A stretch of 64,000 bases of DNA, from the NCBI GenBank assembly GCA_963813815.1, contig CAWFAD010000007.1, forward strand, positions 352,001 through 416,000, in the 5' to 3' direction. A program made the position numbers and the translations under genes. Numbering within the stretch: position 1 is the first letter of the stretch; every line of letters starts with the position of its first letter. Positions 40,269 to 62,465 of this stretch are shown here, piece by piece. The notes beneath the pieces were generated by a model, which was not told the DNA's origin, did not search any database, and saw only the letters and a list, made by a program, of their open reading frames with translations. Source of the DNA: an uncultured bacterium. Lineage in GTDB: Bacteria > Krumholzibacteriota > Krumholzibacteriia > Krumholzibacteriales > Krumholzibacteriaceae.

Positions 40269-40421
40269 ATTTTTATTGCCCGGACCGTGCTGCATTCCGA
40301 GCCTCTCCATCTATGAGCTCCCGAGGATCCGCGCGCGAATAGGATCGTGCGTCCGCTTCGCGCGCGGGGAACGACCGTCTTCATCAGGGCCGCGGCCCCT
40401 ACCGCGGCTCGGGACTGCGGC

Positions 40422-43866: not shown

Positions 43867-43882
43867 GAAAGGCGCCGGTCTC

Positions 43883-45036: not shown

Positions 45037-45804
45037 ATGACGCCGGTATCCGAAAAGAAGCACTGGGACCGGTTCTGGACCGGCGCCGGAGAGGCTGAAG
45101 ATGTCTACTCGAACGAGGGGCGCGTAGCGGAGCGCCTCTCGCGCGCCCTGCCGCTCGAGGGAAAGCTCGTGCTCGAGGTGGGGGCGGGAACGGGACGGGA
45201 CGCTCTCGATCTCGCCCGCCGCGGCTCCCGGGCGGTGGCGCTCGACTACAGCCAGGCGAGCCTGCGTCTCATCCGATCGCAGCTCGCCGCCGGCGCCGGC
45301 GCGAGCCTCGTCTGCGGCGACGCCTTCGCGCTCCCCTTCCCGGACGAAACCTTCGACGTCGTGTTTCACCAGGGGCTCCTCGAGCACTTCCGGAACCCGG
45401 ACGACCTCATCGCGGAAAACGCGCGGGTGCTGAGGCGCGGGGGAATCATGCTCGTCGACGTGCCGCAGCGGTACCACTACTACACGATCGTCAAGCACGT
45501 CCTCATCGCCATGAACCGCTGGTTCGCCGGCTGGGAACGCGAGTATTCGGTGGGAGAGCTCGAGCGCATGCTGGAGCGGCACGGATTCTCCGTCGTCGAG
45601 AGCTACGGAGAGTGGTTCGATCCGCCGATATGGTATAGAATGCTGCGTCGTTCGCTGAGGCCGGCGGGCGTGTCGCTTCCGATGTATCCGAGGCTTTTCC
45701 GGGCGATGTCCCGCGCTCTCGCGGGGCCGCGGCGATGGCTGCTCGAGCGGCGGCCTGCGCTCTACACGACGGTCATCGTTGGGACCGTCGCCCGCAAGAG
45801 ATAG
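45037..45804 (+). CDS. Class I SAM-dependent methyltransferase
   Basis: VLEVGAGTG, GDAFALPF.D.TFD, GLLEHF, RVLRRGG. Confidence 0.9.
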   Translation: MTPVSEKKHWDRFWTGAGEAEDVYSNEGRVAERLSRALPLEGKLVLEVGAGTGRDALDLARRGSRAVALDYSQASLRLIRSQLAAGAGASLVCGDAFALPFPDETFDVVFHQGLLEHFRNPDDLIAENARVLRRGGIMLVDVPQRYHYYTIVKHVLIAMNRWFAGWEREYSVGELERMLERHGFSVVESYGEWFDPPIWYRMLRRSLRPAGVSLPMYPRLFRAMSRALAGPRRWLLERRPALYTTVIVGTVARKR

Positions 45805-45845
45805 CGCGCCCCCCGGCGGCGGCGGGAGCGGGAATACGGAGACGG

Positions 45846-46976
45846 ATGAGAATCTGCGCGGTGAACTGGCGCGACATCGCGAACCCGGAAGCGGGCGGGG
45901 CCGAGGTCCATCTGCACGAGATCCTCTCGCGCATCGCGGGCTGGGGTCACGAGGCGACGCAGATGAGCGCCGGTTGGCCGGGTTGCCGCCCCGAGGAGAC
46001 GATCGACGGCGTCAGGGTGCTTCGACGAGGAGCGTGGTTCGACGCCAACTTTGCGCTGCCGCTTTTCGCGCGGCGGCATTTCCAACGAGAGCGCTACGAC
46101 GTCGTTCTCGAGGACATCAACAAGCTTCCGTTCTTCATGCCGCTCGTCGCGAGGGCCCCGGTCGTAGCCGTGGTGCCGCACCTGTTCGGCACGACCGCTT
46201 TCCGGGAGGCGAATCCCGCGATCGCCTCGTATGTCTGGCTGCTCGAGCGGTTCATACCGGTCGTGTTCAAACGAAACGAGTTCATGGTCATCAGCCCGAG
46301 CACGAAGGACGATCTCGTCGCGAGAGGCGTCGATCCCCGCCGCGTCACCGTCGTTCTCTGCGGGCTCGATCATGGACGCTACCGCGATCTCGGGCTCGAG
46401 CGCTTCCCCGACCCCGTCATCGTGCACCTCGGGCGACTGCGCAAGTACAAGAGCGTGGAGGTGGCGCTGCGGGCGATGACGCGCGTCCGGGAGCGCCTGC
46501 CCTCGGCGAGGCTCGTCGTCGTCGGCGATGGGCCGCATCGCCCCGCCCTCGAGCGCGAGGCGGAACGGCTCGGTCTCGGCGGGGCGGTGGAGTTCCGCGG
46601 CTACCTCCGCGGCGACGAGCTCGTCGAGCTGCTCAACCGGGCGCATCTCGTCGTCAATCCGAGTCCGAAGGAAGGGTGGGGGCTCACGGTCGTCGAGGCG
46701 GGGGCGTGCGGCGTCCCCGTGGTCGCGAGCGACCGTCCGGGGCTCCGCGATTCCGTCCGTCACGGCGAGACGGGGTTGCTCGTTCCGTACGGGGACGTCG
46801 AGGCGTTCGCCGCCGCGTCGATCCGGATTCTCGAGGACCGGGCTCTCAGGGAAAGGCTCGGGCGCGGCGCCGTGGAGCGCGTGAAGGAGCTCACGTGGGA
46901 GCGCTGCGCGCGCGAAACGCTCACCGTCCTCGATCGGGTCGCGGGGGCGCCGGCCCCGGAGGAGGGACGTCCATGA
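45846..46976 (+). CDS. Glycosyltransferase family 4
   Basis: NWRD..NPEAGGAE, GRL.KYK, PSPKEGWGLTVVEA..G.PVVASD. Confidence 0.92.
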   Translation: MRICAVNWRDIANPEAGGAEVHLHEILSRIAGWGHEATQMSAGWPGCRPEETIDGVRVLRRGAWFDANFALPLFARRHFQRERYDVVLEDINKLPFFMPLVARAPVVAVVPHLFGTTAFREANPAIASYVWLLERFIPVVFKRNEFMVISPSTKDDLVARGVDPRRVTVVLCGLDHGRYRDLGLERFPDPVIVHLGRLRKYKSVEVALRAMTRVRERLPSARLVVVGDGPHRPALEREAERLGLGGAVEFRGYLRGDELVELLNRAHLVVNPSPKEGWGLTVVEAGACGVPVVASDRPGLRDSVRHGETGLLVPYGDVEAFAAASIRILEDRALRERLGRGAVERVKELTWERCARETLTVLDRVAGAPAPEEGRP

Positions 46977-47968
46977 ACGCGAGAAAGCGGCTGCTGCAGG
47001 CGTTCAAGATCGCGGTCAGCGTGGGGCTCATCGCGTTTCTGCTGCGGAGGCTGTCTCCCGAGGACGTGCTGTCGAATCTGAGAAATCTCTCCGCCGCCCC
47101 GCTCGTCGCGGCGACGGCGATATTCTTCGTGAGCGTCGCGCTCGGGGCGTGGCAGTGGCACCGCCTGCTCCGCGCGGGAGGCATCGCGCTCCCCTTCGGG
47201 AGAACCTTCCGTTTCTACTTCATCGGCATCTTCTTCAACAACTTTCTGCCGGCGGGCGTCGGTGGGGACGTCGTGAAGATCTACGACGTGACGAAGATCG
47301 GAAACGATCCCTACCAAGTCTTCGCCACGACGATCCTCGACCGCGTCATCGGCATCGCGGGGCTCTGCGTCCTCGCGCTCGCGGCCTCCCTGACGCTGCT
47401 CGCGGGGGAAGGCCTCGAGCACCTCGGTCTCTACGCGCTCATCTTCGCGGGGTGCATGGCGCCGCTCCTCGCGCTCATCCTCAACCGGCGCCTCTCGAGG
47501 GGCGTGCGCACCCTCTTCGGCCGGATCTCGCTCTGGGGGCTCGGGCCCCGCTTCGACGCTCTCTTTAGGCGTCTCGGCGAGTACCGGCGCGTCCGTTCCC
47601 TCCTCGCCGGCCTCACGGGGCTCGCCGTGGCCGTTCAGTTTCTGCGCGTCGTCACGCACGTGCTCGTCGCGCGGGCTCTCGGGATCGACGTGACGCCGCT
47701 CGCCTTCGTGCAGTTCTTCGTTTTCGTTCCGCTCCTCGGGCTGCTCATGGTGGTCCCGATCTCGATCAACGGGCTCGGCGTGCGCGAGGGAGCCGGGATA
47801 CTGCTCTTTTCGCAGATCGGATTCTCGAGCGAGCAGGCGCTGCTCATGGAGCTCATCACCTACGCGATTATGGTCGTCGTGAGCCTCCTCGGCGGGGTAT
47901 ACTTTCTCCAGAGGCATCTCGAACGTTTGGGCGCGACCGAAAGGAATGGGGCTGGCGGACATGTCTGA
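46973..47968 (+). CDS. Lysylphosphatidylglycerol synthase TM domain (flippase-like) protein
   Basis: W..LL, FFNNFLP..VGGDVVK, DRVIG, PISINGLGVRE. Confidence 0.88.
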   Translation: MNARKRLLQAFKIAVSVGLIAFLLRRLSPEDVLSNLRNLSAAPLVAATAIFFVSVALGAWQWHRLLRAGGIALPFGRTFRFYFIGIFFNNFLPAGVGGDVVKIYDVTKIGNDPYQVFATTILDRVIGIAGLCVLALAASLTLLAGEGLEHLGLYALIFAGCMAPLLALILNRRLSRGVRTLFGRISLWGLGPRFDALFRRLGEYRRVRSLLAGLTGLAVAVQFLRVVTHVLVARALGIDVTPLAFVQFFVFVPLLGLLMVVPISINGLGVREGAGILLFSQIGFSSEQALLMELITYAIMVVVSLLGGVYFLQRHLERLGATERNGAGGHV

Positions 47969-50483
47969 CAAGCGTCTTCAGCTGGTGCTAGCGCTGGTGG
48001 TGTTCATCGTGCCGTTTGTCGTCTATTTTTTGACGATGGCGGCGACGGTGTCGTTCTGGGACAGCGGCGAGTTCATAGCGACGAGCTACATACTGGGGAT
48101 ACCGCATTCGCCGGGGACGCCGCTGTACGTGCTGGTGGGGCGGGTGTTCACGATGCTGCCGTTGCCGCTGTCGATTGCGGAGCGAGTGAACCTGCTGTCG
48201 GTGGTGTTTTCGGCGCTGGCGTCGATGATGGTGTATCTGATCGTGACGGCGACGGTGCGGTTCATGTATCCGGCGCTGAAGGGCGGGATGGGGCGGTTCA
48301 TGGTGCACGCGGGGGGGTTGACGGGTGCGTTTTTTCTTGCGTTCAGCACGACGTTTTGGTGGGACGCGACGGAGGCGGAGGTATACGCGCTGAGCTCGTT
48401 CGTGATGGGGCTGTGCACGTGGCTGGCTCTCTCGTGGTATCGCAACCCCGCGGGGCACGCGGCGGTGGCGGACGGGGGGAAGGCGGTCGAGATCGAGGAG
48501 GTTCAGGAGCGCCGGCACGCGCGGGGGCTCGTGTATCTCATCGTGTATCTGCTGGCGCTGGGGATCGGGTTTCACCTGGGGACGATTCTGGTGTTCGGCG
48601 GCATATTTCTGCTGTTTTTGCTCGTGAAGGAGAAGGCGTTTTCGAACGCGGAGCTCATCATCTTCACCTTCGGTTTGGCGGTGCTGCTGGCGGACATGAC
48701 GCTGTACCGCAGCTCGGCGGCGACGGTCGTGGGGCTGCTGGTGTTCGCGGCGCTGGTCGTGTGGGCGACGAAGGCGCGGGGGCGGTTCGCGCTGGCGTCG
48801 ACGGGGCTTTTGGCGCTCGGTTTGTCGGTGCACCTCTATCTCTACATTCGTTCGCATCTCGATCCGGGGATCGACATGGTCGATCCGGAGACGTGGAAGG
48901 CGATGTACGCGCATCTGCGCCGGGAGCAGTATCCGCCGATCAACGTGCTCGAGCGGAAGGCGTCGCTGGCGTTTCAGCTGAGGCACTTCGGCGGGTATTT
49001 TCGCGAGCAGTTCCGGATGACGGGGGACGCGTACGTCGGGCCGTTCAACGCGGGGCAGGCGCTGACGGCGATTCCGGTGGCGCTCGGGTTTTTGGGGATC
49101 GCGGCGAACTGGGTGCGGGAGCGGCGGACGTGGGCGCTCAACTTCGCGAACCTGGCGATCAACTCGGCGGGGCTCTTGGTGTTTTTGAACTTCAGCGCGA
49201 GCGAGGTGCGTGAGCGGGATTATTTTTACGGTCCGGCGTTTTACTTTTTCGCGGTGTTCATCGGGATCGGGGCCTCGTGGCTGCTCGTGACGGTCGCCGA
49301 GTGGGCCGAGCGGCGGCGGGCGGAGCGGTTCGGGTACGTGGTGCCGGTCGGAGCCCTCTGCATCGTCCTCTCGCTCCTCCCCATCCGCCACAACTGGTGG
49401 ACCCACGACCGGTCGGAGCACTATTTCGCCGAAGACTACGGTCGCAACATGCTGGGGAGCCTCGAGTCAGGGGCGATCCTCTTCACCTACGGCGACAACG
49501 ACACGTATCCGCTCTGGTATCTGCAGAACGTCGAGCGGTTCCGGACCGACGTGCGGATCGCGAACCTGAGCCTCCTCCACACGGACTGGTACATCAAGCA
49601 GCTCCGCGACCGGGAGCCGAAGGTGCCCATCGCCTACACCGACGAGGAGATCGAGAACCTCCGCCCCGTTGCCCTCAAGGGAGGCGGCATCGCCTGGCGG
49701 AACGACCTCATGGTGCAGCACATCATCAACGAAACCGCGTGGAAGCGCCCGATCTATTTCTCGACGGGTGCCGCCTTCGAGTCATGGAAGCCGTACGCCG
49801 AATATCTCGAGATGGAGGGCCTCGCCCGCAGGCTCGTTCCGCGGCAGGGATCGAACCAGGTGAACGCCGCCATACTCGAGCGCAATCTCAGCGAGATATT
49901 CGCCTATCGAGGGGTCGTCGATCGCGACTGGCGTCCCGACAACTCGATCTACCGCGAAAAGGATTTCCGGTTCGTTCTCAACAACTACGCCGTCGCCATG
50001 CTGCAGCTCGCCGGCGTCAGGGCGAGCGAGCGCGATTTCGCGGGGGGGGCGCTGTGGGTGGAGCGCGCGCTGCTCTTCGAACCGGAGCTCAAGCCCGGCA
50101 AGGAAATTCTCGGAACGTACTACGCGCTCGGCGGCGACGTGGCGAGCGGCATCGCCTACTACGACAGCCTCGTGAAAGCGGAGCCCGCGACGGGCGAGTA
50201 CTGGCTTCGCTACGCGCGGCTTCTGGCCATCGAGGGGCGGACGGATCTCGCGCTCGCCACGGTCGACGAGGGTATCGCGGGCCTTCCCGAGTTCCGCCAG
50301 CTCTACATCGAGGGGTTCCAGCACGCCGCGCGCGCCGGGCTCGCCGACACGGCGCGAAGCTACATCGAGCGCTGGCTCGAAAAGCACCCCGACGACAACG
50401 AGTTCTCGGCGACGCTGCGCGACTTCGGCGCGATCATGGAGGAGGCGCGGCGGGCGGCCTCCGCTCCCCGCGACGGGAGCTAG
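47961..50483 (+). CDS. DUF2723/TMEM260-like GT-C glycosyltransferase with C-terminal TPR-like region, copy 1
   Basis: FWDSGEF...LGIPHSPGTPLY, ATEAEVY, RERDYFY, GDNDTYPLWY; many TM helices; helical C-terminus. Confidence 0.88.
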   Translation: MSDKRLQLVLALVVFIVPFVVYFLTMAATVSFWDSGEFIATSYILGIPHSPGTPLYVLVGRVFTMLPLPLSIAERVNLLSVVFSALASMMVYLIVTATVRFMYPALKGGMGRFMVHAGGLTGAFFLAFSTTFWWDATEAEVYALSSFVMGLCTWLALSWYRNPAGHAAVADGGKAVEIEEVQERRHARGLVYLIVYLLALGIGFHLGTILVFGGIFLLFLLVKEKAFSNAELIIFTFGLAVLLADMTLYRSSAATVVGLLVFAALVVWATKARGRFALASTGLLALGLSVHLYLYIRSHLDPGIDMVDPETWKAMYAHLRREQYPPINVLERKASLAFQLRHFGGYFREQFRMTGDAYVGPFNAGQALTAIPVALGFLGIAANWVRERRTWALNFANLAINSAGLLVFLNFSASEVRERDYFYGPAFYFFAVFIGIGASWLLVTVAEWAERRRAERFGYVVPVGALCIVLSLLPIRHNWWTHDRSEHYFAEDYGRNMLGSLESGAILFTYGDNDTYPLWYLQNVERFRTDVRIANLSLLHTDWYIKQLRDREPKVPIAYTDEEIENLRPVALKGGGIAWRNDLMVQHIINETAWKRPIYFSTGAAFESWKPYAEYLEMEGLARRLVPRQGSNQVNAAILERNLSEIFAYRGVVDRDWRPDNSIYREKDFRFVLNNYAVAMLQLAGVRASERDFAGGALWVERALLFEPELKPGKEILGTYYALGGDVASGIAYYDSLVKAEPATGEYWLRYARLLAIEGRTDLALATVDEGIAGLPEFRQLYIEGFQHAARAGLADTARSYIERWLEKHPDDNEFSATLRDFGAIMEEARRAASAPRDGS
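47967..49417 (+). repeat. Direct repeat copy A (about 1.45 kb), matching 50630-52080
   Basis: Matches at offset 2663 by inspection; the overlapping alternative-frame ORFs in the track are also identical. Confidence 0.93.
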
Positions 50484-50623
50484 CCCGGTTGCGCCCGAAG
50501 CCCCGCGCCGCCCGGCGGGTCCGGCCCCGCCCGCCCCAGAAAATGCTTCCAAATAACGCGGAGTTTTTGTAGTTTTAACGAGTTCCGACATCTCCGGAAC
50601 TCCGTCATCGAGGTGCGATCGGT

Positions 50624-53158
50624 ATGTCCGACAAGCGTCTTCAGCTGGTGCTAGCGCTGGTGGTGTTCATCGTGCCGTTTGTCGTCTATTTTTTGACGAT
50701 GGCGGCGACGGTGTCGTTCTGGGACAGCGGCGAGTTCATAGCGACGAGCTACATACTGGGGATACCGCATTCGCCGGGGACGCCGCTGTACGTGCTGGTG
50801 GGGCGGGTGTTCACGATGCTGCCGTTGCCGCTGTCGATTGCGGAGCGAGTGAACCTGCTGTCGGTGGTGTTTTCGGCGCTGGCGTCGATGATGGTGTATC
50901 TGATCGTGACGGCGACGGTGCGGTTCATGTATCCGGCGCTGAAGGGCGGGATGGGGCGGTTCATGGTGCACGCGGGGGGGTTGACGGGTGCGTTTTTTCT
51001 TGCGTTCAGCACGACGTTTTGGTGGGACGCGACGGAGGCGGAGGTATACGCGCTGAGCTCGTTCGTGATGGGGCTGTGCACGTGGCTGGCTCTCTCGTGG
51101 TATCGCAACCCCGCGGGGCACGCGGCGGTGGCGGACGGGGGGAAGGCGGTCGAGATCGAGGAGGTTCAGGAGCGCCGGCACGCGCGGGGGCTCGTGTATC
51201 TCATCGTGTATCTGCTGGCGCTGGGGATCGGGTTTCACCTGGGGACGATTCTGGTGTTCGGCGGCATATTTCTGCTGTTTTTGCTCGTGAAGGAGAAGGC
51301 GTTTTCGAACGCGGAGCTCATCATCTTCACCTTCGGTTTGGCGGTGCTGCTGGCGGACATGACGCTGTACCGCAGCTCGGCGGCGACGGTCGTGGGGCTG
51401 CTGGTGTTCGCGGCGCTGGTCGTGTGGGCGACGAAGGCGCGGGGGCGGTTCGCGCTGGCGTCGACGGGGCTTTTGGCGCTCGGTTTGTCGGTGCACCTCT
51501 ATCTCTACATTCGTTCGCATCTCGATCCGGGGATCGACATGGTCGATCCGGAGACGTGGAAGGCGATGTACGCGCATCTGCGCCGGGAGCAGTATCCGCC
51601 GATCAACGTGCTCGAGCGGAAGGCGTCGCTGGCGTTTCAGCTGAGGCACTTCGGCGGGTATTTTCGCGAGCAGTTCCGGATGACGGGGGACGCGTACGTC
51701 GGGCCGTTCAACGCGGGGCAGGCGCTGACGGCGATTCCGGTGGCGCTCGGGTTTTTGGGGATCGCGGCGAACTGGGTGCGGGAGCGGCGGACGTGGGCGC
51801 TCAACTTCGCGAACCTGGCGATCAACTCGGCGGGGCTCTTGGTGTTTTTGAACTTCAGCGCGAGCGAGGTGCGTGAGCGGGATTATTTTTACGGTCCGGC
51901 GTTTTACTTTTTCGCGGTGTTCATCGGGATCGGGGCCTCGTGGCTGCTCGTGACGGTCGCCGAGTGGGCCGAGCGGCGGCGGGCGGAGCGGTTCGGGTAC
52001 GTGGTGCCGGTCGGAGCCCTCTGCATCGTCCTCTCGCTCCTCCCCATCCGCCACAACTGGTGGACCCACGACCGGTCGGACAACTACATTGCGAGGGATT
52101 ACGCGCACAACATGCTCGCCGGGCTCGAGTCCGGAGCGATCCTCTTCACGAACGGCGACAACGACACGTATCCGCTCTGGTATCTGCAGAACGTCGAGCG
52201 GTTCCGGACCGACGTGCGCGTCGCGAACCTCAACCTGCTCAACACGGACTGGTACATCAAGCAGCTCCGCGACCGGGAGCCGAAGGTGCCCATCGCCTAC
52301 ACCGACGAGGAGATCGAGAACCTCCGCCCCGTTGCCCTCAAGGGAGGCGGCATCGCCTGGCGGCGCGACCAGGCGGTGCAGCACGTCATCAACGAGGCGA
52401 GTTGGAAGCGTCCGATCTACTTCGCGGTCACGGTGCCGCTCGAGATCTGGCGGCCGTACGAACGGTATCTCGAGACGGAGGGGATCGTGCGCCGTCTCGT
52501 TCCGACCGCGGGGGAGGACCGCGTCAACGAGTATCTCCTCGCGCGCAACCTCGACGAGATCTACCGCTTCAGAGGCATGCTCACGGCCGGTGGCGCGGTC
52601 GATTCCACGATCTACAAGGACCGGGACGTGCGAGCCACCTTCGTCAATTTCGCCGTCGCGGCGGCGCAGCTTGGCCAGCAGCGGGCGATCGCCAAGGATT
52701 TCGACGACGCGATTCGCCGGATGGAGCTCGCGCTCGCGCTCGATCCCGGTCTCGATGCCGCGAAGGTGCTGCTCGGCAGCTACTATATGATGGCGGGCAG
52801 GGACGCGGACGCGATCGCGCATTACCTCCGGGCGATCGCGGAGGAGCCGGGACAGGGGGAATACTGGGTGCGGCTCGCCCGGATCTACGAGTTCAAGGAG
52901 CAACTGCCGTTCGCGATGCAGAATCTCGGCGAGGGTATCCGCCTCGCTCCCGACCACCGGCAGCTCTATATCGACGCGTTCCGCGTCGCGGCCCTCATGG
53001 GGGATGCCGATCGGGCGAAGGGGTTCATCGCCCGGTGGCTCGAACGGCACCCGGAGGACGAGGAGATGCAGGCCGTCCTCGAGGGGGCGGACCGGCTGCT
53101 CGAGGAGGAGTTCGGACTCGACGGCTCGGAGCGGCCGCGCGGAGGGGGCGACGAATGA
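50624..53158 (+). CDS. DUF2723/TMEM260-like GT-C glycosyltransferase with C-terminal TPR-like region, copy 2
   Basis: Same N-terminal ~485 aa as copy 1; divergent C-terminus with TPR-like A..LDP..AKVLLG.YY...A..HY..A motif. Confidence 0.88.
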   Translation: MSDKRLQLVLALVVFIVPFVVYFLTMAATVSFWDSGEFIATSYILGIPHSPGTPLYVLVGRVFTMLPLPLSIAERVNLLSVVFSALASMMVYLIVTATVRFMYPALKGGMGRFMVHAGGLTGAFFLAFSTTFWWDATEAEVYALSSFVMGLCTWLALSWYRNPAGHAAVADGGKAVEIEEVQERRHARGLVYLIVYLLALGIGFHLGTILVFGGIFLLFLLVKEKAFSNAELIIFTFGLAVLLADMTLYRSSAATVVGLLVFAALVVWATKARGRFALASTGLLALGLSVHLYLYIRSHLDPGIDMVDPETWKAMYAHLRREQYPPINVLERKASLAFQLRHFGGYFREQFRMTGDAYVGPFNAGQALTAIPVALGFLGIAANWVRERRTWALNFANLAINSAGLLVFLNFSASEVRERDYFYGPAFYFFAVFIGIGASWLLVTVAEWAERRRAERFGYVVPVGALCIVLSLLPIRHNWWTHDRSDNYIARDYAHNMLAGLESGAILFTNGDNDTYPLWYLQNVERFRTDVRVANLNLLNTDWYIKQLRDREPKVPIAYTDEEIENLRPVALKGGGIAWRRDQAVQHVINEASWKRPIYFAVTVPLEIWRPYERYLETEGIVRRLVPTAGEDRVNEYLLARNLDEIYRFRGMLTAGGAVDSTIYKDRDVRATFVNFAVAAAQLGQQRAIAKDFDDAIRRMELALALDPGLDAAKVLLGSYYMMAGRDADAIAHYLRAIAEEPGQGEYWVRLARIYEFKEQLPFAMQNLGEGIRLAPDHRQLYIDAFRVAALMGDADRAKGFIARWLERHPEDEEMQAVLEGADRLLEEEFGLDGSERPRGGGDE
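50630..52080 (+). repeat. Direct repeat copy B (about 1.45 kb), matching 47967-49417
   Basis: Matches copy A at offset 2663. Confidence 0.93.
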
Positions 53159-54129: not shown

Positions 54130-55067
54130 CAGTGAAAACGAGCTATTTCGGATCGGCCGTCGTTCCACTCTACAACGAGCGCGAGAGCCTCGTTGAGCTC
54201 CATCGCCAGCTCGCCGCGGTGATGGATCGCACGTTCGCGGGGTACGAGCTCATCTTCGTCGACGACGGGTCGACGGACGGCTCCATCGAGACGCTGCGGG
54301 AGCTCCGTCTCGGCGACCGGCGCGTGAAGATCATATCCTTCCGCCGCAACTACGGCAAGTCGGCCGCGCTCTCCGAGGCGTTCAAGGCGGCGCGCGGCGA
54401 TATCGTCGTCACGATCGACGCCGATCTTCAGGACAACCCCGAGGAGATCCCCGGCCTCGTCGCCAAGCTCGAGGAGGGGTACGATCTCGTCTCCGGCTGG
54501 AAGCTCAAGCGCAAGGACCCGCTCACGAAGACGCTGCCGTCGCGGCTCTTCAATCTCACCACCTCGCTCGTGAGCGGCATCAAGCTGCACGATTTCAACT
54601 GCGGTCTCAAGGCGTATCGCGGCGAGGTCGTCAAGCGCATCTCGATCTACGGCGAGCTGCATCGCTTCATACCCGTCATCGCCGGATGGGAGGGGTTCCG
54701 CGTGACGGAGAAGCGGGTGACGCACTTCGAGCGCAAGTACGGCCAGAGCAAGTTCGGCGCGCGCCGCTTTCTCAACGGCATGTTCGATCTCATGACGGTC
54801 ATGTTCCTCACGCGGCGCGCCTCGACGCCGTTCCATTTCTTCGGACGCGTCGCCTTTTTCTTTCTGGCCGCGGGCTCCCTCATCACGCTCTATTTTCTCG
54901 CGATCTGGATGTTCGGACACGGGCTCCGCGTGCGGCCGCTCATGGTCGGCGGACTCGTCATGATCGTGATCGCGATCCAGATCGGGTCGTTCGGGCTTCT
55001 CGCGGAGCTCTTCACGTCGCGGGTCGAGCGAACCTTCGCGTACCGCGAGCAGAGCATCGATGACTAA
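54126..55067 (+). CDS. GT2 polyprenol-phosphate glycosyltransferase (ArnC/GtrB-like, C-terminal TMs)
   Basis: VPLYNE, VDDGSTD, RNYGKS.AL, DADLQD.P, DFNCGLKAYR, ELHRFIP. Confidence 0.9.
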   Translation: MTVKTSYFGSAVVPLYNERESLVELHRQLAAVMDRTFAGYELIFVDDGSTDGSIETLRELRLGDRRVKIISFRRNYGKSAALSEAFKAARGDIVVTIDADLQDNPEEIPGLVAKLEEGYDLVSGWKLKRKDPLTKTLPSRLFNLTTSLVSGIKLHDFNCGLKAYRGEVVKRISIYGELHRFIPVIAGWEGFRVTEKRVTHFERKYGQSKFGARRFLNGMFDLMTVMFLTRRASTPFHFFGRVAFFFLAAGSLITLYFLAIWMFGHGLRVRPLMVGGLVMIVIAIQIGSFGLLAELFTSRVERTFAYREQSIDD

Positions 55068-56217
55068 GGGACCTGCACGGCGCCGCTACTGTCTCGTCGG
55101 ACCCGCGTACCCGTACCGGGGAGGCATCTCGCATTACAACACGTGCCTCATCCGGGAGCTCTCCGGGAAGAGCGACGTGCGGGCGATCAATTTCTCGCGC
55201 TTGTACCCCGGCTTCCTCTTTCCGGGGAAGACGCAGTTCGACGAGAGCGCGCGGCCGCTCGAGGCGCCCTCGCTCCGGCTCGTCGATTCGCTCAATCCGT
55301 TGTCCTGGATTCGCGCCGGCGCGGCGGCGGCGCGTTTCCGTCCCGACGCCGTGCTCGTTCAGTGGTGGCATCCCTTCTTCGCCCTTTCGATGGCCGCGCT
55401 CTGCGCCGTCGTCAGGATGCGGTGCCGCGCGAAGATCGTTTTCATCTGCCACAACGTTCTGCCGCACGAGCGCTCCCTCGTCGACGCGACGCTCGCCCGC
55501 GTCGCCTTCGCGGCGGCGGACGCCTTCGTCGTTCAGTCGAACGAGGACCGCGGCAAGCTCTCGCGGATCAAGCGCCGCTCTCCGGTCATCGTGCATCCGC
55601 ATCCCAGCTACGATTTCTTCGCCTCGGGGGGGTTCACGCGGGAGAGCGCGCGCTCGGCGATCGGAGAGGGCGCGGGGCCGCTCGTGCTCTTTTTCGGGTA
55701 CGTGCGGGGCTACAAGGGCCTGCGGTATCTTCTCGAGGCCATGCCGGCGCTGCGCGAGCGAGTGCCGGCCCGGCTGCTCGTCGTCGGGGAGTTCTACGAC
55801 AGCCGCTCCCCCTACGACGAGCTCGTCTCGAGGCTCGGCCTCGGGGACGCCGTCCGCTTCGTCGACCGCTACGTCGGAAACGAGGAGGTGGAGGCGTACT
55901 TTGCCGCGAGCGATCTCGTCGTCCTGCCCTACGTGTCGGCGACGCAGAGCGGCATCGCTCAGATCGCCATCGCCTTCGACCGTCCCGCCGTCGTGACGGA
56001 CGTCGGAGGGCTTCCCGAGGCGATCGCTCACGAGCGAACGGGATTCGTCGTGCCGCCGCGCGATCCGGCCGCCCTCGCCGGCGCGATGGCGCGGTTCTTC
56101 GAGGAAGGCTGGGCGGGGAAAATGGCGCCGCTCTTCGCGGAGGAGAAGCGGCGCTTCTCGTGGAGCGCCATGGCGGAAGCGGTCGAGGGGCTTCTCGACC
56201 GCCTCGAACGCGGGTGA
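55060..56217 (+). CDS. Glycosyltransferase family 4
   Basis: GPAYPYRGGIS.Y, QWWHPFF, HNVLPHE, FFGYVR.YKGL, PY.SATQSG. Confidence 0.9.
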   Translation: MTKGPARRRYCLVGPAYPYRGGISHYNTCLIRELSGKSDVRAINFSRLYPGFLFPGKTQFDESARPLEAPSLRLVDSLNPLSWIRAGAAAARFRPDAVLVQWWHPFFALSMAALCAVVRMRCRAKIVFICHNVLPHERSLVDATLARVAFAAADAFVVQSNEDRGKLSRIKRRSPVIVHPHPSYDFFASGGFTRESARSAIGEGAGPLVLFFGYVRGYKGLRYLLEAMPALRERVPARLLVVGEFYDSRSPYDELVSRLGLGDAVRFVDRYVGNEEVEAYFAASDLVVLPYVSATQSGIAQIAIAFDRPAVVTDVGGLPEAIAHERTGFVVPPRDPAALAGAMARFFEEGWAGKMAPLFAEEKRRFSWSAMAEAVEGLLDRLERG

Positions 56218-56224
56218 GGACCGG

Positions 56225-57112
56225 GTGGATCGCACCATCCACGTCATCGTTCTCAACTGGAACGGCGCCGCCGTGCTCGGAGAATGCCTCGCCTCCCTCG
56301 CGAGGGTTCGCGGGCCGCGCCTCGAGATCATCGTCGTGGACAACGCTTCGACGGACGGTTCCGCCGGCATCATCCGGCGCGGCCACCCCGGAATCGAGCT
56401 TCTCGTGAACGAGCGCAATCTGCTCTTCGCCGGGGGAAACAACGTCGGGATGCGGCGCGCGATGGAACGGGGAGCCCGGCGCATCCTTCTCCTCAACAAC
56501 GACACCGAGGTGGATCCCGACTTCGCCGGGCGCCTGCTCGACTCGCTCGAGACCGATCCGCGGGCGGGGATAGCGGGGCCGAAGATCCTCTATCACGGCG
56601 ATCCGGAGCGGATCTGGTACGGCGGGGCGGATTTCTATCCGATCATCGGCGTGCCGCGTCATCGCAACATCCGCCGCAGGGACGGCGCTTTTCCCGAGCG
56701 CGCCGTCGAGACGGGGTGGGTGTCGGGATGCGCGATGCTCGTGCGGCGGGAGGTCGTCGAGGCGATCGGGTATCTCGATCCTTCCTACGAGATGTACTGC
56801 GAGGACGTCGATTACTGTCTCCGGGCGCGGCTCGCGGGGTGGCGCTGCCGATACGAGCCGGAGGCCCGCGTGTGGCACAAGGTGAGCTCCTCGAGCGGGG
56901 GCGGCATGACGCCCTTCAAGCTCGAGAACAGGATCGCGAGCACGAAGCGGCTCTTCGCGCGCTTCAGGCCCTTGTGGTGGCGGGCGCTGCTCGCGCCGGC
57001 GCACGCGGCGGGGCTCGCGCTGCTCGTGGCGGGGTTCATCGCGAGCGGCAGGGCGCAGCTGGCGCGCGCGGCGTGGCGCGGCGCATGGCGCCGCCGAAGA
57101 GAGGCACCCTAA
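56225..57112 (+). CDS. Glycosyltransferase family 2
   Basis: LNWNG, VDNASTD, FAGGNN.G, LLNNDT, GCAML, EDVDYC. Confidence 0.9.
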   Translation: MDRTIHVIVLNWNGAAVLGECLASLARVRGPRLEIIVVDNASTDGSAGIIRRGHPGIELLVNERNLLFAGGNNVGMRRAMERGARRILLLNNDTEVDPDFAGRLLDSLETDPRAGIAGPKILYHGDPERIWYGGADFYPIIGVPRHRNIRRRDGAFPERAVETGWVSGCAMLVRREVVEAIGYLDPSYEMYCEDVDYCLRARLAGWRCRYEPEARVWHKVSSSSGGGMTPFKLENRIASTKRLFARFRPLWWRALLAPAHAAGLALLVAGFIASGRAQLARAAWRGAWRRRREAP

Positions 57113-57131
57113 GGCAATCATTTTTAATGGG

Positions 57132-57160
57132 TTGCTTGGAACGCCGAGAAGTGGTACTCT
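57132..57160 (+). promoter_or_regulatory. Putative sigma70 promoter of the yfhO-like gene
   Basis: AT-rich upstream tract; TTGCTT-17 bp-TACTCT with extended -10 TG. Confidence 0.55.
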
Positions 57161-57181
57161 TTGAAGTGACGGAGGTAATGT

Positions 57182-59647
57182 TTGAGTAAGGCAGTATCCC
57201 CGCAGGGCGGGGCGGGGGAAACCGGGATATTCGATCGTCTCGAATCCCTGCGCCCGCGGTACCAGGCGCTCGTGCTCGCCGCCGTTCTCGTCGCGGCGCT
57301 CTGCCTGCTTCTGCCGGACGTCATCTTTCAAGGCAAGCTCTTTCTCGTGCCCGACGCGATCGCCCCGATGAACTTCGCCGTCGTGGGAGAGAAGGAGCTC
57401 GCCGCCGGCTCGTATCCTCTCTGGAATCCGTACCTCTTCTGCGGCATGCCGAGCTACGCGAGCCTCGCCTTCACTCCCTACGTCTATCCGCCGTCCTTCG
57501 TCACCTTCGCGCTCCAGCGATACCTCGGTTTTCCCGAGATGACGTGGCTGCTCATCCATTACCTGCTCGCGGGCGCGGGCATGTACCTTCTCGCCCGGGC
57601 GCTCGGGTGCCGCGCGGCGGTCTCCATGGCGGCGGGACTCGTCTTCATGCTTCTCCCGAACTACGTCGCGATGGGAGCGAACGGCCACGGATCGCAGGCC
57701 GTCTCGATAGCGTACATGCCGCTCGCGCTGCTGCTGGCGTGGCGCGTTCTCTCCGGGCCCCGGCGCCTCGCCCCGGCGGGATTGCTCGCGATCGTTCTCG
57801 GGTTTCAGATGCTCCGCGGCCACGTGCAGATCGCCTACTACACCTATCTCCTCATCGGGCTCCTCGTTCTCTTCGAGGCGGCGGCGCTTCTCCGGGCTCG
57901 GGATCGCGCGGGGCTCGCGAGGGGCGCCGGTTTTCTCGCCGGGTCGTTCGCCGTGGCGGTCGGCATCGCCGCCGTTCTCATCTTCCCCGTGCGCGAGTAC
58001 GCGGCGCATTCGATTCGGGGCGGCGCGGCGGGCGGCGGGCTCGACTACGGCTACGCGACGGGCTGGAGCCTCCATCCGAGGGAAATGGCGACCTTCGTGT
58101 TCGCCTGGGCGAGCGGGTTCGGAAAGGCGACCTACTGGGGGGCGATGCCGTTCACGGATTATCCGAACTACCTCGGGGTCGCGACCGCCGTCTGCGCCGT
58201 TTTCGGGCTCCTGCTCGCGAAGGACCGCCGGAGATGGTTTCTCCTGGCCGCCGCGCTCGCGGCGACGCTCGTGAGTTTCGGCAAGTTCTTTCCGCTTCTG
58301 TACGAGCCGATGTTCGAGTATCTGCCCTATTTCAACAAGTTCCGCGTGCCCGTCATGGCGCTCATCGTCCAGCAGCTCGCCGTCGTTCTCCTCATGGCGA
58401 CCGGGCTCGAGGCCTTCCTCTCTCGCGCACGCGGCGGAACGCTTCCTCCGTGGTGCGCGGCGAAGCGCCTCAAATGGGCGCTCGTCGCCGTCGCGATCGC
58501 CCTTCTCCTCACGCTCGTGGGGAGCGGCGGAATCAGGGAGAGCGTGGGCGGCAGCGCGGCGGTGAAGGCGAGAGTGCCGGCGGAATGGATCGCCGCCGCG
58601 TCCTCGGCCTACGCGAGCGATCTCGCCAAGACGCTCGCCGTTCTCGCGGCGGTCATCCTCGTTCTCGCGTTCGCGGCGGGGAAGCGGATGAGCGCCGGGA
58701 CGGCGGCCGTCCTGATCGCGGCGTTCGCGGCGGTCGATCTCTTTCTCGTCGATCGCGCCGTTTTGCATCCCGAGGGGACGTGGCGGGGGACGCAGCCGAT
58801 CGTGATGGAGAAGGGCGTCCGGGAGCGATACCTCCTTCCCGACGACGCCGTCCGATTCTTCCGCGCCGACACGTCGTACTTCCGCGTCTTTCCCGTTCCC
58901 GACGCGCGGATCGGCCAGTGGTCGCACAACGCGTACCCCTTCAGCGACAACCGGTTCATGTCGCACGGCATTTTCTCGCTCGGCGGGTACCACGCGGCCA
59001 AGCTCAAGCGGTACCAGAACGTCATGGACGCGATGTTCGAGGCCTTCAACGGCCGGCGATACCCGGCGGCGCTCGTCGACATGCTGAACGCGAAGTATTT
59101 CCTCTCCTCCTACCGGCTCTTTCCCGAGAACACGGGAATGCCGCTCGTGGCGAGCGGAGAGAAATTCTTCGTTTACGAGAATCCGACGGCGCTGCCGAGG
59201 GTCTCCTTCGTCGACTCCGTCCGCGTGCTGTCCCCGGAGGCGGCGCTGAGGAAACTCGCCGCCGGCGAGGTCGAGCCGGCCCGCGAGGTGATTCTCGAAA
59301 GGGATCCGCCGATTCGTCCGGAGTCCGCGGCGGGGGCGCACGCCCGCATCACGTCGTACCGCGCGAACGAAATCCGCGTGCGCGCCCATACCGAGCGCCC
59401 CTGCATTCTGCTCCTCAGCGAGATCTGGTATCCCGACTGGAAGGCCGAGGTGAACGGCGAGGAGACCCCGGTGCTCGCGGCCGATTACTGTCTCCGCGCC
59501 ATCGCGCTCGACGCCGGGGACCACGACGTCCGCATGTATTTCGCCTCGCGCCGCCTGCGCGTTTCGCTCATCGTCTCGATCGCGTGTTTCATCGCCGCGG
59601 TCTCGGCCCCGATTTTCTCCCGGGCGGCGGCATGGAGGAGGAGGTAA
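57182..59647 (+). CDS. YfhO family GT-C membrane glycosyltransferase
   Basis: TTG start after GGAGG; PLWNPY..GMP, H.QIAYY, WS, YWG..PFT..P.Y.G, FNKFRVP, GYH.AKL, SEIWYP.WKA.V.G. Confidence 0.85.
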   Translation: MSKAVSPQGGAGETGIFDRLESLRPRYQALVLAAVLVAALCLLLPDVIFQGKLFLVPDAIAPMNFAVVGEKELAAGSYPLWNPYLFCGMPSYASLAFTPYVYPPSFVTFALQRYLGFPEMTWLLIHYLLAGAGMYLLARALGCRAAVSMAAGLVFMLLPNYVAMGANGHGSQAVSIAYMPLALLLAWRVLSGPRRLAPAGLLAIVLGFQMLRGHVQIAYYTYLLIGLLVLFEAAALLRARDRAGLARGAGFLAGSFAVAVGIAAVLIFPVREYAAHSIRGGAAGGGLDYGYATGWSLHPREMATFVFAWASGFGKATYWGAMPFTDYPNYLGVATAVCAVFGLLLAKDRRRWFLLAAALAATLVSFGKFFPLLYEPMFEYLPYFNKFRVPVMALIVQQLAVVLLMATGLEAFLSRARGGTLPPWCAAKRLKWALVAVAIALLLTLVGSGGIRESVGGSAAVKARVPAEWIAAASSAYASDLAKTLAVLAAVILVLAFAAGKRMSAGTAAVLIAAFAAVDLFLVDRAVLHPEGTWRGTQPIVMEKGVRERYLLPDDAVRFFRADTSYFRVFPVPDARIGQWSHNAYPFSDNRFMSHGIFSLGGYHAAKLKRYQNVMDAMFEAFNGRRYPAALVDMLNAKYFLSSYRLFPENTGMPLVASGEKFFVYENPTALPRVSFVDSVRVLSPEAALRKLAAGEVEPAREVILERDPPIRPESAAGAHARITSYRANEIRVRAHTERPCILLLSEIWYPDWKAEVNGEETPVLAADYCLRAIALDAGDHDVRMYFASRRLRVSLIVSIACFIAAVSAPIFSRAAAWRRR

Positions 59648-59651
59648 GCGC

Positions 59652-60368
59652 GTGGAGACGCTCGTCATAGTTCCGACCTACAACGAGAAAGAGAACATCG
59701 CCTCCATCGTCGGCGCCGTGCTCAAGCTCGGCAGCGGCGTCGAGATCCTCGTCATCGATGACGCGAGCCCCGACGGCACCGGCGCCATCGTCGATTCCCT
59801 CGCCGCCGTGAATCCCCGCGTCCACGTGCTCCATCGGCCCGGGAAGCTCGGGCTCGGCTCAGCGTACATCGCCGGCTTCAACTGGGCCCTCGCGAACACC
59901 GAGGCCCGGTACGTCTTCGAGATGGACGCCGATTTCTCGCACGACCCGAACGCGATCCCGCAGTTTCTCGAAGCGGCCAAGGAGGCGGATCTCGTCATCG
60001 GCTCCCGGTATCTCAGGGGGGTCACGGTGGTGAACTGGCCGCTCGGCCGGCTCATCCTGAGCTACGGCGCGAACGTCTATACGCGCCTCATTACGGGGAT
60101 GCCGATCAAGGACGCGACGGGCGGTTTCAAGTGCTTCCGGCGGGAGGTGCTCGAGCGCCTGCCTCTCGATCGCATCAGGAGCGACGGATATTCCTTTCAG
60201 ATCGAGCTGAACTATATCGCGTGGAAACAGGGCTTCCGCATCGTCGAGATACCCATTCTGTTCGTCGATCGCCGCGTGGGCATCTCGAAGATGTCGAAGA
60301 AAATAGTCTGGGAAGCGACTTTCATGGTCTGGAGGATCCGCTTCATGAACCCGCGACGCTGGCGGTAG
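59652..60368 (+). CDS. Polyprenol monophosphomannose synthase (Ppm1/DPM1-like GT2)
   Basis: VPTYNE.ENI, DD.SPDGTG, GKLGLGSAY..GF, EMDADFSHDP, GSRY, DATGGF, GYSFQIE, G.SKM. Confidence 0.92.
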   Translation: METLVIVPTYNEKENIASIVGAVLKLGSGVEILVIDDASPDGTGAIVDSLAAVNPRVHVLHRPGKLGLGSAYIAGFNWALANTEARYVFEMDADFSHDPNAIPQFLEAAKEADLVIGSRYLRGVTVVNWPLGRLILSYGANVYTRLITGMPIKDATGGFKCFRREVLERLPLDRIRSDGYSFQIELNYIAWKQGFRIVEIPILFVDRRVGISKMSKKIVWEATFMVWRIRFMNPRRWR

Positions 60369-60389
60369 GGTTCGTCCGCGGGAGCGACT

Positions 60390-62465
60390 ATGGACCTGTC
60401 CATCATCATCGTCACCTACAACAGCCGCGCCCCCGTCGAGCGCTGTCTCGCCTCGCTCGAAAGGCATCCCGCCTCGGGGCTCGCCGAGACGATCGTCGTC
60501 GACAACGCCTCTTCCGACGGCACCGCGGAGACGGTGCGCGGGCGATTTCCCGGCGTGCGCGTCGTCGCGAACGCGGAGAACCGGGGATACTCCCGGGGCG
60601 TGAACCAGGGCATCCATTCCTCGACCGGGCGCCTCATCCTCATTCTCAATCCCGACATCGTCGTCGGCGAGGGTTCGATCGACCGGCTCGCCTCTTTCAT
60701 GGCGGAACATCCCGACGCGGGCATCGCCGGGGCCAAGCTCGTGTATCCCGACGGCACGCTCCAGTATTCCGCGCGGGCCTTCTACACGCCGAGCGCGCTC
60801 CTCTTCCGCCGGACCGTTCTCGGCAGGATGTTCCCGAGGGCGAAGCCGCTCCGCGATCACCTCCTCATGGACGACGGCCATGCCGTCTCCCGCGAGGTCG
60901 ATTGGATCATCGGCGCCTGCATGCTCGTGCGGCGCGCGGCGCTCGAACAGGTGGGGGCGATGGACGAGCGCTTCTTCCTCTACTTCGAGGATCTCGACTG
61001 GTGCTACCGCATGAAGCAACGCGGCTGGAAGGTGTGCTACGTTCCCGACTCGGTCATGGTTCATACCTACGAGCGCTCGAGCGCGCGATCCGTTTTCCGC
61101 AAGCCCTTCATCATTCACATTCTGAGCCTCCTGCGATACTACGAGAAATGGAACCGGCTCTTCTACTTCCTGCGCCGCAATCGAGGGGCGGCCAAGACGC
61201 TCGTGCTCGCCGCCGGCGATCTCGCGGCGTTGAACGCCGCCTTCTTCGCGGCGTACTACGCGCGGGTGCTCGCGCAGCCGTTCTTTACCCACGAGCTCTA
61301 TCCGGTGAGCTGGTACGGATCGTTCATGGGCTTCTACAACCTCGTCCTTCTCCTCACTTTTTTCGCCTTCGGGCTCTACGGCGTGCGCCGGGAGACGCCC
61401 CCCGAGGAGGAGGTTCTCCGCGTCGTCCGGGCGGTGTTTCTCGGACTCGTCATTCTCATGGCGGCGACCTACATGAGCAGGGTTCGCATCTATTCGCGCG
61501 CGGTCGTCATCGCTCAGGGGGCGCTCGCGATCGTCCTCGTCTCGCTCTCCCGTCGGGCCATCCGCGCCATGCACGGCACGCTCGTGAGGGCGCGATTCGA
61601 TCTCAAGCGCGTCCTCATCGTCGGAACGCGCGAGGAGGCGGCGGCGCTCTCCGAGCAGTTCGCCGGGCTCCCCGAGCTCGGGATCGACGTCGTCGGCTTT
61701 CTGGGCGGCTCCGGAGACGGTCTCGGCGCCATCGCGGACCTGTCGGACGTGGTGGAGCGGTTCACGATTCAGGAGGTCGTCATCTGCGAGTCTCATCAGG
61801 GGGACCGGACGCTCGTGCCCTTTCTCTCGCGGGTGCGCCGCCGCATGATCCAGATAACGATGGTGTCCCCGCTCGCGCGCTTTCTCGGGAGAGGCGCCCG
61901 AGTGGAGGAGCTCGCGGGCCTGCACGTATTTTCCATGGAACGCCGGTCGTATCTCTGGTTCGAGCGCGGCATGAAGAGGCTCTTCGACGGGGCGGCCGGA
62001 ATCGCCGTCCTTCCGTTCGCCCTATTTGCCTCCGGCGTCTTCCGGATCTATGGTACACTGACCCGCCGGGTTCGCTTTTTCGCGGAGGCGCGGCGGGGGA
62101 GGGGCGGGGACGCGATTCGGTGGCCGCGAGCCGTCCGCGCGTCGGGGCGCGAAGCGGGAGATCTCGTGAAACCGGCGCTCTGGCTCTCGCTCGTCGTCGG
62201 TCGGCTCAGCCTCGTCGGCCCGCCGGCGCTCCCCGGGGCGCCCGCCGCGGGCCTCGCCGCGGCGCTCGATTCCGTGCGGCCCGGCATCACGGGGCGCTGG
62301 CGCATCGCGAGGCACGGCGACGCTCGAGAGGCGCTCGAGGAGGAGGCGCTCGCGCTCAGCTCATGGTCCTCGAGCCGGGATCTCGTGATTTTGCTCGCCT
62401 CTCTCGGGGGCATCTGGTCGGGATCGTATCCGGCGTGGTTCCACGGCAAGGGGGATGCATCGTGA
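60390..62465 (+). CDS. Fusion: WbbL-like GT2 + WcaJ-like phosphoglycosyltransferase region (catalytic domain degenerate)
   Basis: N-half: VDNASSDG, LNPD, GACML, MDERFFLYFED.DWC. C-half: TMs, KRVLIVG Rossmann, KRLFD, LSLVGP, RPGITG. Confidence 0.82.
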   Translation: MDLSIIIVTYNSRAPVERCLASLERHPASGLAETIVVDNASSDGTAETVRGRFPGVRVVANAENRGYSRGVNQGIHSSTGRLILILNPDIVVGEGSIDRLASFMAEHPDAGIAGAKLVYPDGTLQYSARAFYTPSALLFRRTVLGRMFPRAKPLRDHLLMDDGHAVSREVDWIIGACMLVRRAALEQVGAMDERFFLYFEDLDWCYRMKQRGWKVCYVPDSVMVHTYERSSARSVFRKPFIIHILSLLRYYEKWNRLFYFLRRNRGAAKTLVLAAGDLAALNAAFFAAYYARVLAQPFFTHELYPVSWYGSFMGFYNLVLLLTFFAFGLYGVRRETPPEEEVLRVVRAVFLGLVILMAATYMSRVRIYSRAVVIAQGALAIVLVSLSRRAIRAMHGTLVRARFDLKRVLIVGTREEAAALSEQFAGLPELGIDVVGFLGGSGDGLGAIADLSDVVERFTIQEVVICESHQGDRTLVPFLSRVRRRMIQITMVSPLARFLGRGARVEELAGLHVFSMERRSYLWFERGMKRLFDGAAGIAVLPFALFASGVFRIYGTLTRRVRFFAEARRGRGGDAIRWPRAVRASGREAGDLVKPALWLSLVVGRLSLVGPPALPGAPAAGLAAALDSVRPGITGRWRIARHGDAREALEEEALALSSWSSSRDLVILLASLGGIWSGSYPAWFHGKGDAS

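Follow-up and report, generated by a model that had tools for sequence, protein, structure and literature searches.

Which enzyme attaches the first sugar in the protein O-glycosylation of Bacteroidota has reportedly been sought for more than 15 years, and the locus described here brings the two competing candidates together. It lies in a 64,000-nucleotide stretch of DNA from an uncultured bacterium of the family Krumholzibacteriaceae, phylum Krumholzibacteriota (GenBank assembly GCA_963813815.1, contig CAWFAD010000007.1, positions 352,001 to 416,000 of the forward strand), which we call the window and to which coordinates refer unless another contig or locus is named. A run of genes in this window encodes two membrane glycosyltransferases of the GT-C type related to human TMEM260 (copies A and B), together with a YfhO-like GT-C enzyme and a DPM1-like protein. 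The operon unites both candidates, TMEM260-like and YfhO, with a predicted lipid-mannose synthase, and allows two residues of the former, D34 and D512, to be named. We propose, at a probability of about 0.55, that the TMEM260-like enzymes start a protein O-glycosylation of the type found in the Fibrobacterota-Chlorobiota-Bacteroidota (FCB) group by transferring the first sugar, probably mannose, and that the YfhO-like enzyme extends it. We infer the activity, the donor and the protein acceptor of the run from family, residues, fold, conservation and gene order. If the proposal is right, the TMEM260-like enzyme would be the initiator still missing for Bacteroidota protein O-glycosylation, and a human disease enzyme (SHDRA syndrome, with structural defects of the heart and anomalies of the kidney) would be linked to a general bacterial pathway extending beyond Bacteroidota. 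New here are a complete operon that carries both of the candidate transferases, and a gene-conversion tract that matches the border between donor and acceptor parts.

Two TMEM260-like enzymes in one gene run

A preliminary description of the window, made from the letters alone, had listed a co-oriented set of glycosylation genes, and all of them are present: 12 genes lie on the + strand between 45037 and 62465, separated by gaps of -8 to +140 bp. Its extent had to be corrected, as the co-oriented run is longer than the listed stretch, beginning upstream at the rib/nusB genes (40347) and continuing beyond the 3' end of the window. Pfam supported the methyltransferase, two GT4 enzymes, the LPG_synthase_TM protein, two PF11028 proteins with hits to tetratricopeptide repeats (TPRs), the epimerase and four GT2-type genes (Table 1).

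Copies A and B each match PF11028 (DUF2723) with 150.4 bits (cut-off 24.2). Against human TMEM260 (9RQL), copy B gave an E-value of 5e-16 as a single sequence and 2.8e-47 as an alignment profile, which aligned to human residues 28-485, and the homology proposed earlier is borne out. According to a preprint on its structure, the human enzyme binds its donor through D52, H67, R264, Y267 and R355, uses D441 of the Rossmann-like domain as base, needs each of the six for full activity, and recruits the acceptor by its TPR (10.64898/2026.03.17.711096). These six residues align to D34, H49, R321, Y324, R419 and D512, all of which are invariant across 121 aligned homologues. The preliminary description had taken the aspartate of an acidic DSGE loop as catalytic. 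This aspartate, D34, is kept, but it corresponds to the donor-binding D52; the predicted catalytic base is D512 (human D441), present in both copies. The overall interpretation is supported in part: it came through the computational tests of fold, acidic residues and co-occurrence, and the residue named as catalytic was wrong. The preliminary description had also overlooked the connection to the Bacteroidota O-glycosylation question and the competing YfhO proposal. For 77 open reading frames (ORFs) from FCB loci the counts were D 77, H 77, R 76, Y 76, R 74 and D 71 in the same order. The shortfall at the R419 and D512 positions consists mostly of gaps in cut-off ORFs, and the conservation of D34 in this set is by construction, because the ORFs were picked by the W-D-x-G/S-E motif.

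The AlphaFold2 model (predicted local distance difference test, pLDDT, 94.8) comprises a membrane GT-C core, an alpha/beta Rossmann-like domain and TPRs, so the GT-C fold that had been expected is found. Fold searches returned GT-C matches at Z 20-24, with about 24 to STT3 and 22.9 to ArnT, and TPR matches over residues 674-834. Human TMEM260 itself was not listed by these searches, probably because 9RQL is missing from the searched library; the relationship to TMEM260 therefore rests on the sequence matches. The TPR region gave no significant alignment to 9RQL. The layout of membrane GT-C, Rossmann-like and TPR parts and the six key residues are shared with human TMEM260 (CAZy GT117; PF11028; PDB 9RQL/9RQM/9RQN), whereas here the enzymes belong to a bacterial inner membrane, an operon with glycan-extending genes and a pair of tandem paralogues.

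A further difference concerns positions 510 and 537, which match the human acceptor contacts R439 and E466 and are N/Y and S/N here. Copy A has Y510, where N is usual, and copy B has N537. Extra copies in other genomes mostly deviate from N510/S537 as well, with G/T, Y/S, N/Q and N/M in four sets. We infer that such differences between copies change specificity. Among the relatives compared, which carry G numbers (G000 is the genome studied), stand-alone second copies outside the operon (G021, G017, G025) all have M at 537. Loci with two TMEM260-like ORFs are seen in further FCB genomes, among them Latescibacterota and KSB1 (L089, L091, L092, L096), and in G008 a 480-aa ORF, presumably B12-binding radical SAM-like, is inserted between the two copies (L044:893-2854).

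Proposed route of glycosylation and its alternatives

In the proposed route, guanosine diphosphate mannose (GDP-Man) would be made by ManB/ManC, and the DPM1-like enzyme would load the mannose onto polyprenyl phosphate. The resulting polyprenyl-P-Man would have to be flipped, for which the LPG_synthase_TM protein is a possible candidate. The membrane domain of the TMEM260-like enzymes would then hold the donor through D34, H49, R321, Y324 and R419, and D512 would activate the acceptor hydroxyl, both after the model of human TMEM260. Mannose would be transferred in the periplasm to Ser/Thr of exported proteins, most likely at D-S/T-L motifs of the Bacteroidota type. The YfhO-like enzyme would next attach a further sugar, the second, or else the outer glycan, with the ArnC-like and GT2/GT4 enzymes as suppliers. 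Methylation of the glycan would fall to the methyltransferase, a candidate glycan O-methyltransferase.

The best PDB match of the DPM1-like protein is an archaeal dolichyl-phosphate-mannose synthase (5mlz, E 1.9e-32), followed by ArnC (1.1e-9) and a GtrB-type enzyme (4e-5), and we predict a polyprenyl-P-mannose synthase, the sugar included in the prediction. The ArnC/GtrB-like GT2, which also matches PgfS weakly, is predicted to be a second polyprenyl-P-sugar synthase, and the LPG_synthase_TM protein is a candidate lipid-sugar flippase. The manB/manC-like genes noted earlier are present, although they lie about 19 kb upstream of the run and outside it. In the GT2 fusion at 60390-62465 the Bac_transf match is below its cut-off, and the catalytic Asp-Glu pair of the L-D-E-L-P-Q motif, which we take to be the catalytic motif of WcaJ/WbaP phosphoglycosyl transferases, is absent here and in 8/8 orthologues shown. 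The YfhO call is only partly upheld: the Pfam score (PF09586, 22.3 bits) is under the cut-off of 28.5, and the protein at 57182-59647 was filed as YfhO-like because its close homologues are annotated YfhO. A single-sequence search of the PDB gave nothing useful for it. Its model (pLDDT 89.3) has a GT-C fold, with the glycan-extending AftD as top match (Z 19.7, root-mean-square deviation 5.8, 583 residues aligned); the protein is a candidate second periplasmic transferase or ligase.

The same combination of a polyprenyl-P-sugar synthase and an extracytoplasmic GT-C enzyme underlies protein O-glycosylation by actinobacterial Ppm1/Pmt and by PgfS/PgfE/PgfM of Streptococcus mutans. The transferases here belong to PF11028 instead, and gave no Pmt-family match in Pfam. 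Likenesses to B. subtilis CsbB/YfhO and mycobacterial AftD are the GT-C fold of the YfhO-like protein, its best match to AftD and its place in an operon with an ArnC/CsbB-type synthase; it differs from CsbB/YfhO in falling below the PF09586 cut-off and in its Gram-negative host.

PF11028 was found in 147/151 sampled genomes of this phylum and in all 201 of 201 Bacteroidota genomes, mostly as a single copy; among 14 control genomes only B. thetaiotaomicron had it. For 31 relatives, whose loci were taken from a list of 40, the order TMEM260-like...YfhO-DPM1-like-GT2 fusion is kept on one contig in 22; in the remaining nine the locus is interrupted by contig ends, with no conflicting order. Partner genes in Bacteroidota were detected in every genome searched, largely scattered: DPM1-like in 61/61, YfhO-like in 41/41 and ArnC-like in 31/31 (single-copy, E<=1e-70). 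The co-occurrence of DUF2723 with Ppm1 and with YfhO, which the preliminary description had named as a check, is thus confirmed. GT4b orthologues were seen in 24/31 and GT4a in 6/31 (both E<=1e-50), with GT4b and the YfhO-like gene no more than about 6 kb apart in several genomes, and the GT2/WcaJ-WbaP-like fusion directly follows the DPM1-like gene on its 3' side in many Bacteroidota also. In contrast to that system, the genes here are clustered and come from another phylum.

Published work on Bacteroidota fits a mannose-first, stepwise route in several respects. A review states that the core glycan mostly begins with mannose, that its transferase, core flippase and ligase are unidentified, and that the sites are D-S/T-hydrophobic motifs, most often with L, and it suggests a search for the transferase among O-mannosylation homologues (PMC12871550). 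The core of the Bacteroidota type is Man-(Me)Rha-GlcA. Stepwise transfer also fits because mutants of P. gingivalis are described with mono- and di-saccharide stubs (PMC8729774). In the open-access literature DUF2723 turned up in a single paper, which mentions just distant homologues in bacteria; in the same literature, subscription papers being outside the scope, we found no assignment of TMEM260-type enzymes to Bacteroidota O-glycosylation.

We then compared the frequency of the tripeptide DSL in exported and cytoplasmic proteins. Genes were called with our own crude caller (2023 genes) and export was assigned by a hydropathy rule, giving 398 exported and 938 cytoplasmic proteins. In the exported set DSL was observed 100 times against 50.8 expected (observed/expected 1.97, in 73 proteins), compared to 88 against 81.8 (1.08) in the cytoplasmic set (p 2.4e-5 for the contrast). 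It ranked second among 4115 tripeptides in exported proteins, in which neither ESL nor DAL was enriched. For the exported set, the sister genome G023 gave a ratio of 2.60 and a Chitinophagaceae genome one of 2.56; E. coli and S. meliloti pSymB, both lacking PF11028, gave 1.16 and 1.26, respectively. These control genomes supplied 6-24 counts each and are still weak although the control set was doubled from 29 and 34 exported proteins. The enrichment of D-S-L in predicted exported proteins, a possible likeness to the Bacteroidota system, is therefore suggestive only. The broad motif D-S/T-[AILVMT] was dropped as a discriminator, as E. coli scores as high.

Several observations weigh against the proposed route. 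For the exported/cytoplasmic DSL ratio, neither G023 (1.38, p 0.16) nor the positive control from Bacteroidota (1.57, p 0.09) shows significance, the S. meliloti negative control has 1.53 (not significant, 7 counts), and the broad motif gives 1.19 here and 1.32 in E. coli. With the query used, the flippase candidate was detected in just 7/31 Bacteroidota (E<=1e-8). Outside this phylum the genes are linked in a minority of cases only. Within 7 kb of the TMEM260-like gene in 72 FCB loci (Eisenbacteria, Latescibacterota, Gemmatimonadota, Zixibacteria, KSB1, Marinimicrobia, Cloacimonadota, Fibrobacterota, WOR-3, Ignavibacteria, Chlorobia and others), a DPM1-like gene was found in 6 (one weak) and a YfhO-like gene in 2; GT4a was linked in 20 (including a few weak hits), the methyltransferase in 13 and a flippase-like gene in 12. 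Mannose is not assured, because the operon has two candidate lipid-sugar synthases, 12 more PMT_2 (PF13231) matches occur elsewhere in the genome, and the T. forsythia glycan is reported to start with Gal (PMC8729774). The PMT_2 matches are spread over several contigs, the genome being rich in GT-C enzymes. Finally, the fold of the YfhO-like protein ties AftD (Z 19.7) with STT3B (Z 19.0), and a 2026 preprint predicts YfhO to be the initiating transferase (10.64898/2026.07.27.740950).

According to this last prediction YfhO would be an oligosaccharyltransferase that moves a lipid-linked core glycan en bloc, and the TMEM260-like enzymes would do a side job on a few proteins or a branch. The preprint argues from a Pmt-like profile match, wide conservation and essentiality; the conservation in Bacteroidota and the tied fold match given above favour it too. 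We nevertheless consider it unlikely. The TMEM260-like gene keeps a protein-acceptor active site, the YfhO-like protein had no TPR match in the Pfam search, and the characterised YfhO of B. subtilis reportedly acts on a glycopolymer. Furthermore, YfhO is reported missing in P. gingivalis (10.64898/2026.07.27.740950), for which 257 O-glycosylation sites are given (PMC8729774), though that absence may be an artefact because the search used the Pfam cut-off that the YfhO of this run also misses.

Decoration of a lipid or an envelope polysaccharide (lipid A/lipopolysaccharide or a glycolipid), as in ArnC/ArnT or CsbB/YfhO systems, is the function that the ArnC-like synthase, the epimerase and the GT2/GT4 enzymes of the operon, the CapD-like gene that follows and the high rank of ArnT among the fold matches would suggest. 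We regard it as improbable, since the sequence relationship is to TMEM260 and not to ArnT, and both the base in the Rossmann-like domain and the TPR lobe, which recruits the peptide in TMEM260, are kept. Mannosylation of proteins rather than of lipids or polysaccharide is in our view well argued as a prediction.

More improbable still is a role as domain-specific protein O-mannosyltransferases acting on a few Ig/IPT-type proteins and independent of the D-S/T system. Human TMEM260 is described as specific for IPT domains with a sequon allowing much variation, extra copies differ at the acceptor-contact positions, and the genome does encode an exported protein with IPT/TIG domains. Yet a search with the human sequon in a loosened form yielded nothing meaningful, as it hit four unrelated proteins and not the TIG protein, and the presence in every Bacteroidota genome, mostly as one copy, fits a general system better. 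The TIG protein has 2289 aa and two IPT/TIG domains, the sole TIG hits of the genome (contig C16, 521921-528790).

The identical tract of copies A and B

The two DUF2723 genes had been treated as independent, and it had been overlooked that they are identical across 1451 bp. Beyond this tract the identity is about 90% in the Rossmann-like core and 55-62% further on. The tract ends at the equivalent of human residue 415, at the border of the membrane modules.

We compared the two halves of the genes across relatives with quick trees (support by Shimodaira-Hasegawa-like approximate likelihood-ratio test only). In the membrane-domain tree the two copies of G000 cluster together, as do the two of G004. 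In the C-terminal tree, built without G035, G036 and G040, A copies join A copies and B copies join B copies throughout the genus, the A copies of G000 and G004 being reached by a long branch, and the approximately unbiased test of the C-terminus rejected a clade of A plus B (p 5.6e-7). The two G004 copies agree at 98.6% along the 489 bp that are assembled, yet at only 82-84% with G000; as they are 98.6% and not 100% alike, this pair is not an assembly collapse. In other members of the genus (G003, G009, G012, G014) the membrane domains of A and B are just 70-86% alike, so that conversion is episodic. A separate tandem duplication in another genus has tracts of 97-100% in G142 and patchier ones in G087. 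An identical 125-bp start was seen in G016, at a contig end; a 126-bp match in G002 was ruled out as conversion, being the contig overlap of one gene. The comparison shows an old A/B duplication, with gene conversion keeping the predicted donor-binding membrane domain identical here while the Rossmann/TPR lobe diverges, and a tract that, judged by these alignments, is homogenised independently in sister lineages.

The tract also differs in composition. G occupies 78% of its fourfold sites against 41% genome-wide, and the mean absolute GC and TA skews are 0.23 and 0.30, strongest at third codon positions, compared to 0.05-0.08 in the C-terminal parts. Some TA skew is usual in membrane domains (0.12-0.25 in orthologues without conversion) and accounts for part of the value here, and the converted pairs in G142 and G087 show no GC skew. 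Repeats in DNA with intense skews of nucleotides, called GRINS, are defined as duplicated regions >500 bp with >80% identity (Nivina et al. 2021, PMC8256042). The tract of 1451 bp, 100% identical and skewed, qualifies as such a repeat, though in a membrane glycosyltransferase pair and not in a polyketide synthase. Alternatively, the perfect identity would result from collapse during assembly or from duplication in the very recent past, and would mean nothing for function. In favour of this, the source is a metagenome-type assembly, in which complete identity across 1451 bp might reflect a consensus. It is the least probable of the alternatives and largely refuted as regards conversion itself by the G004 pair, the orthologous C-terminal halves, the separate duplication in another genus and the base bias of the tract. 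In contigs of an independent run the shared stretch lies in one 973-bp piece with a depth of 10.1, against 3.3-7.1 for the others, which fits two collapsed copies; depth is no copy number, and we do not count it as evidence.

With one shared donor domain and diverged acceptor lobes, the two copies would share a donor but modify different sets of sites, and since the tract stops at the donor/acceptor border of the human structure, residues 510 and 537 and the TPR likely set the acceptor choice. Tentatively, and at somewhat less than even odds, we go further and suggest that the operon is the physically linked form of an FCB-wide protein O-glycosylation core and would supply the three parts missing for Bacteroidota, a TMEM260-like initiating O-mannosyltransferase, a YfhO outer-glycan ligase and donor supply by the DPM1-like and LPG_synthase_TM proteins. 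The tandem paralogues would then amount to a series of natural chimeras, with GRINS-type conversion fixing the donor domain and the acceptor lobe evolving new site preferences.

A scan of 1471 genes for identity >80% in a 600-nt window returned just the A/B pair, tufA/tufB and one repeat-rich giant gene. The two EF-Tu genes share 1206/1209 bases, with 73% G at fourfold sites (C16, 275974-277182 and 291845-293053). A 4712-aa protein with internal repeats of about 100 aa that are 90-92% alike, and 75-81% G at fourfold sites (C12, 156086-170224), represents a third G-skewed homogenised repeat. In G002 the membrane domain of copy B is G-skewed (GC skew 0.23), although copy A beside it shows neither the skew nor the identity; this may be an orphaned repeat or reflect a third, unassembled copy.

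Features of the window and neighbouring genes

Neither a sigma-70 promoter nor a terminator was found between copies A and B, and none of the sequencing runs listed for this genome is RNA, barring one guessed RNA at a share of 0.05.

Table 1. Features of the glycosylation run and related genes in the window
Feature	Position	Strand	Support or remark
Phosphomannomutase/phosphoglucomutase (PMM, ManB-like)	23219-24601	+	GDP-Man supply, unlinked
Mannose-1-phosphate guanylyltransferase (ManC-like)	24607-25680	+	
SAM-dependent methyltransferase	45037-45804	+	PF08241 E 1e-23
GT4 glycosyltransferase (GT4a)	45846-46976	+	PF00534
LPG_synthase_TM flippase-like membrane protein	46973-47968	+	PF03706; TIGR00374 above cut-off
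TMEM260-like GT-C copy A, 840 aa, fast-evolving TPR end	47961-50483	+	PF11028
First copy of the 1451-bp repeat (codons 3-486), a gene-conversion tract of GRINS type	47967-49417	+	
TMEM260-like GT-C copy B, 844 aa; membrane, Rossmann-like and TPR domains	50624-53158	+	PF11028
Second copy of the 1451-bp repeat, identical to the first	50630-52080	+	
NAD-dependent epimerase/dehydratase	53155-54129	+	PF01370 E 5e-56
ArnC/GtrB-like GT2	54129-55067	+	Top NCBIfam match ArnC, below cut-off
GT4 glycosyltransferase (GT4b)	55060-56217	+	
GT2 glycosyltransferase	56225-57112	+	PF00535; weak rhamnosyltransferase-type match TIGR01556, 56.8 bits (cut-off 200)
YfhO-like GT-C, C-terminal beta-sandwich	57182-59647	+	Homologue annotation and model fold
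DPM1/Ppm1-like predicted polyprenyl-P-mannose synthase	59652-60368	+	PDB match 5mlz
GT2 fused to WcaJ/WbaP-like region, phosphoglycosyl-transferase domain apparently degenerate	60390-62465	+	
Exported beta-propeller protein, 772 aa, to ~64780	62462-64000 (window end)	+	4 D-S/T-L/I/V motifs

The beta-propeller protein at the end of the window is presumably PorZ-like. Upstream, ribD-ribE-ribBA-ribH-nusB-like genes, named from their translations, and a metallophosphoesterase gene (40347-45021) are co-oriented with the run and tightly joined to it. The pair ribH-nusB lies upstream of the run in many relatives and also in 7/72 FCB loci. Past the window (L295:2777-10366, contig C7) follow a CapD/PglF-like gene, a GNAT gene, and genes for a 506-aa membrane protein, a GT4, a 517-aa protein and a methyltransferase, and then a cell-division cluster. 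The 506-aa and 517-aa proteins are without a Pfam match; we take them to be Wzx-like and GT-C-like, respectively. One RmlC-like gene was found on contig C11.

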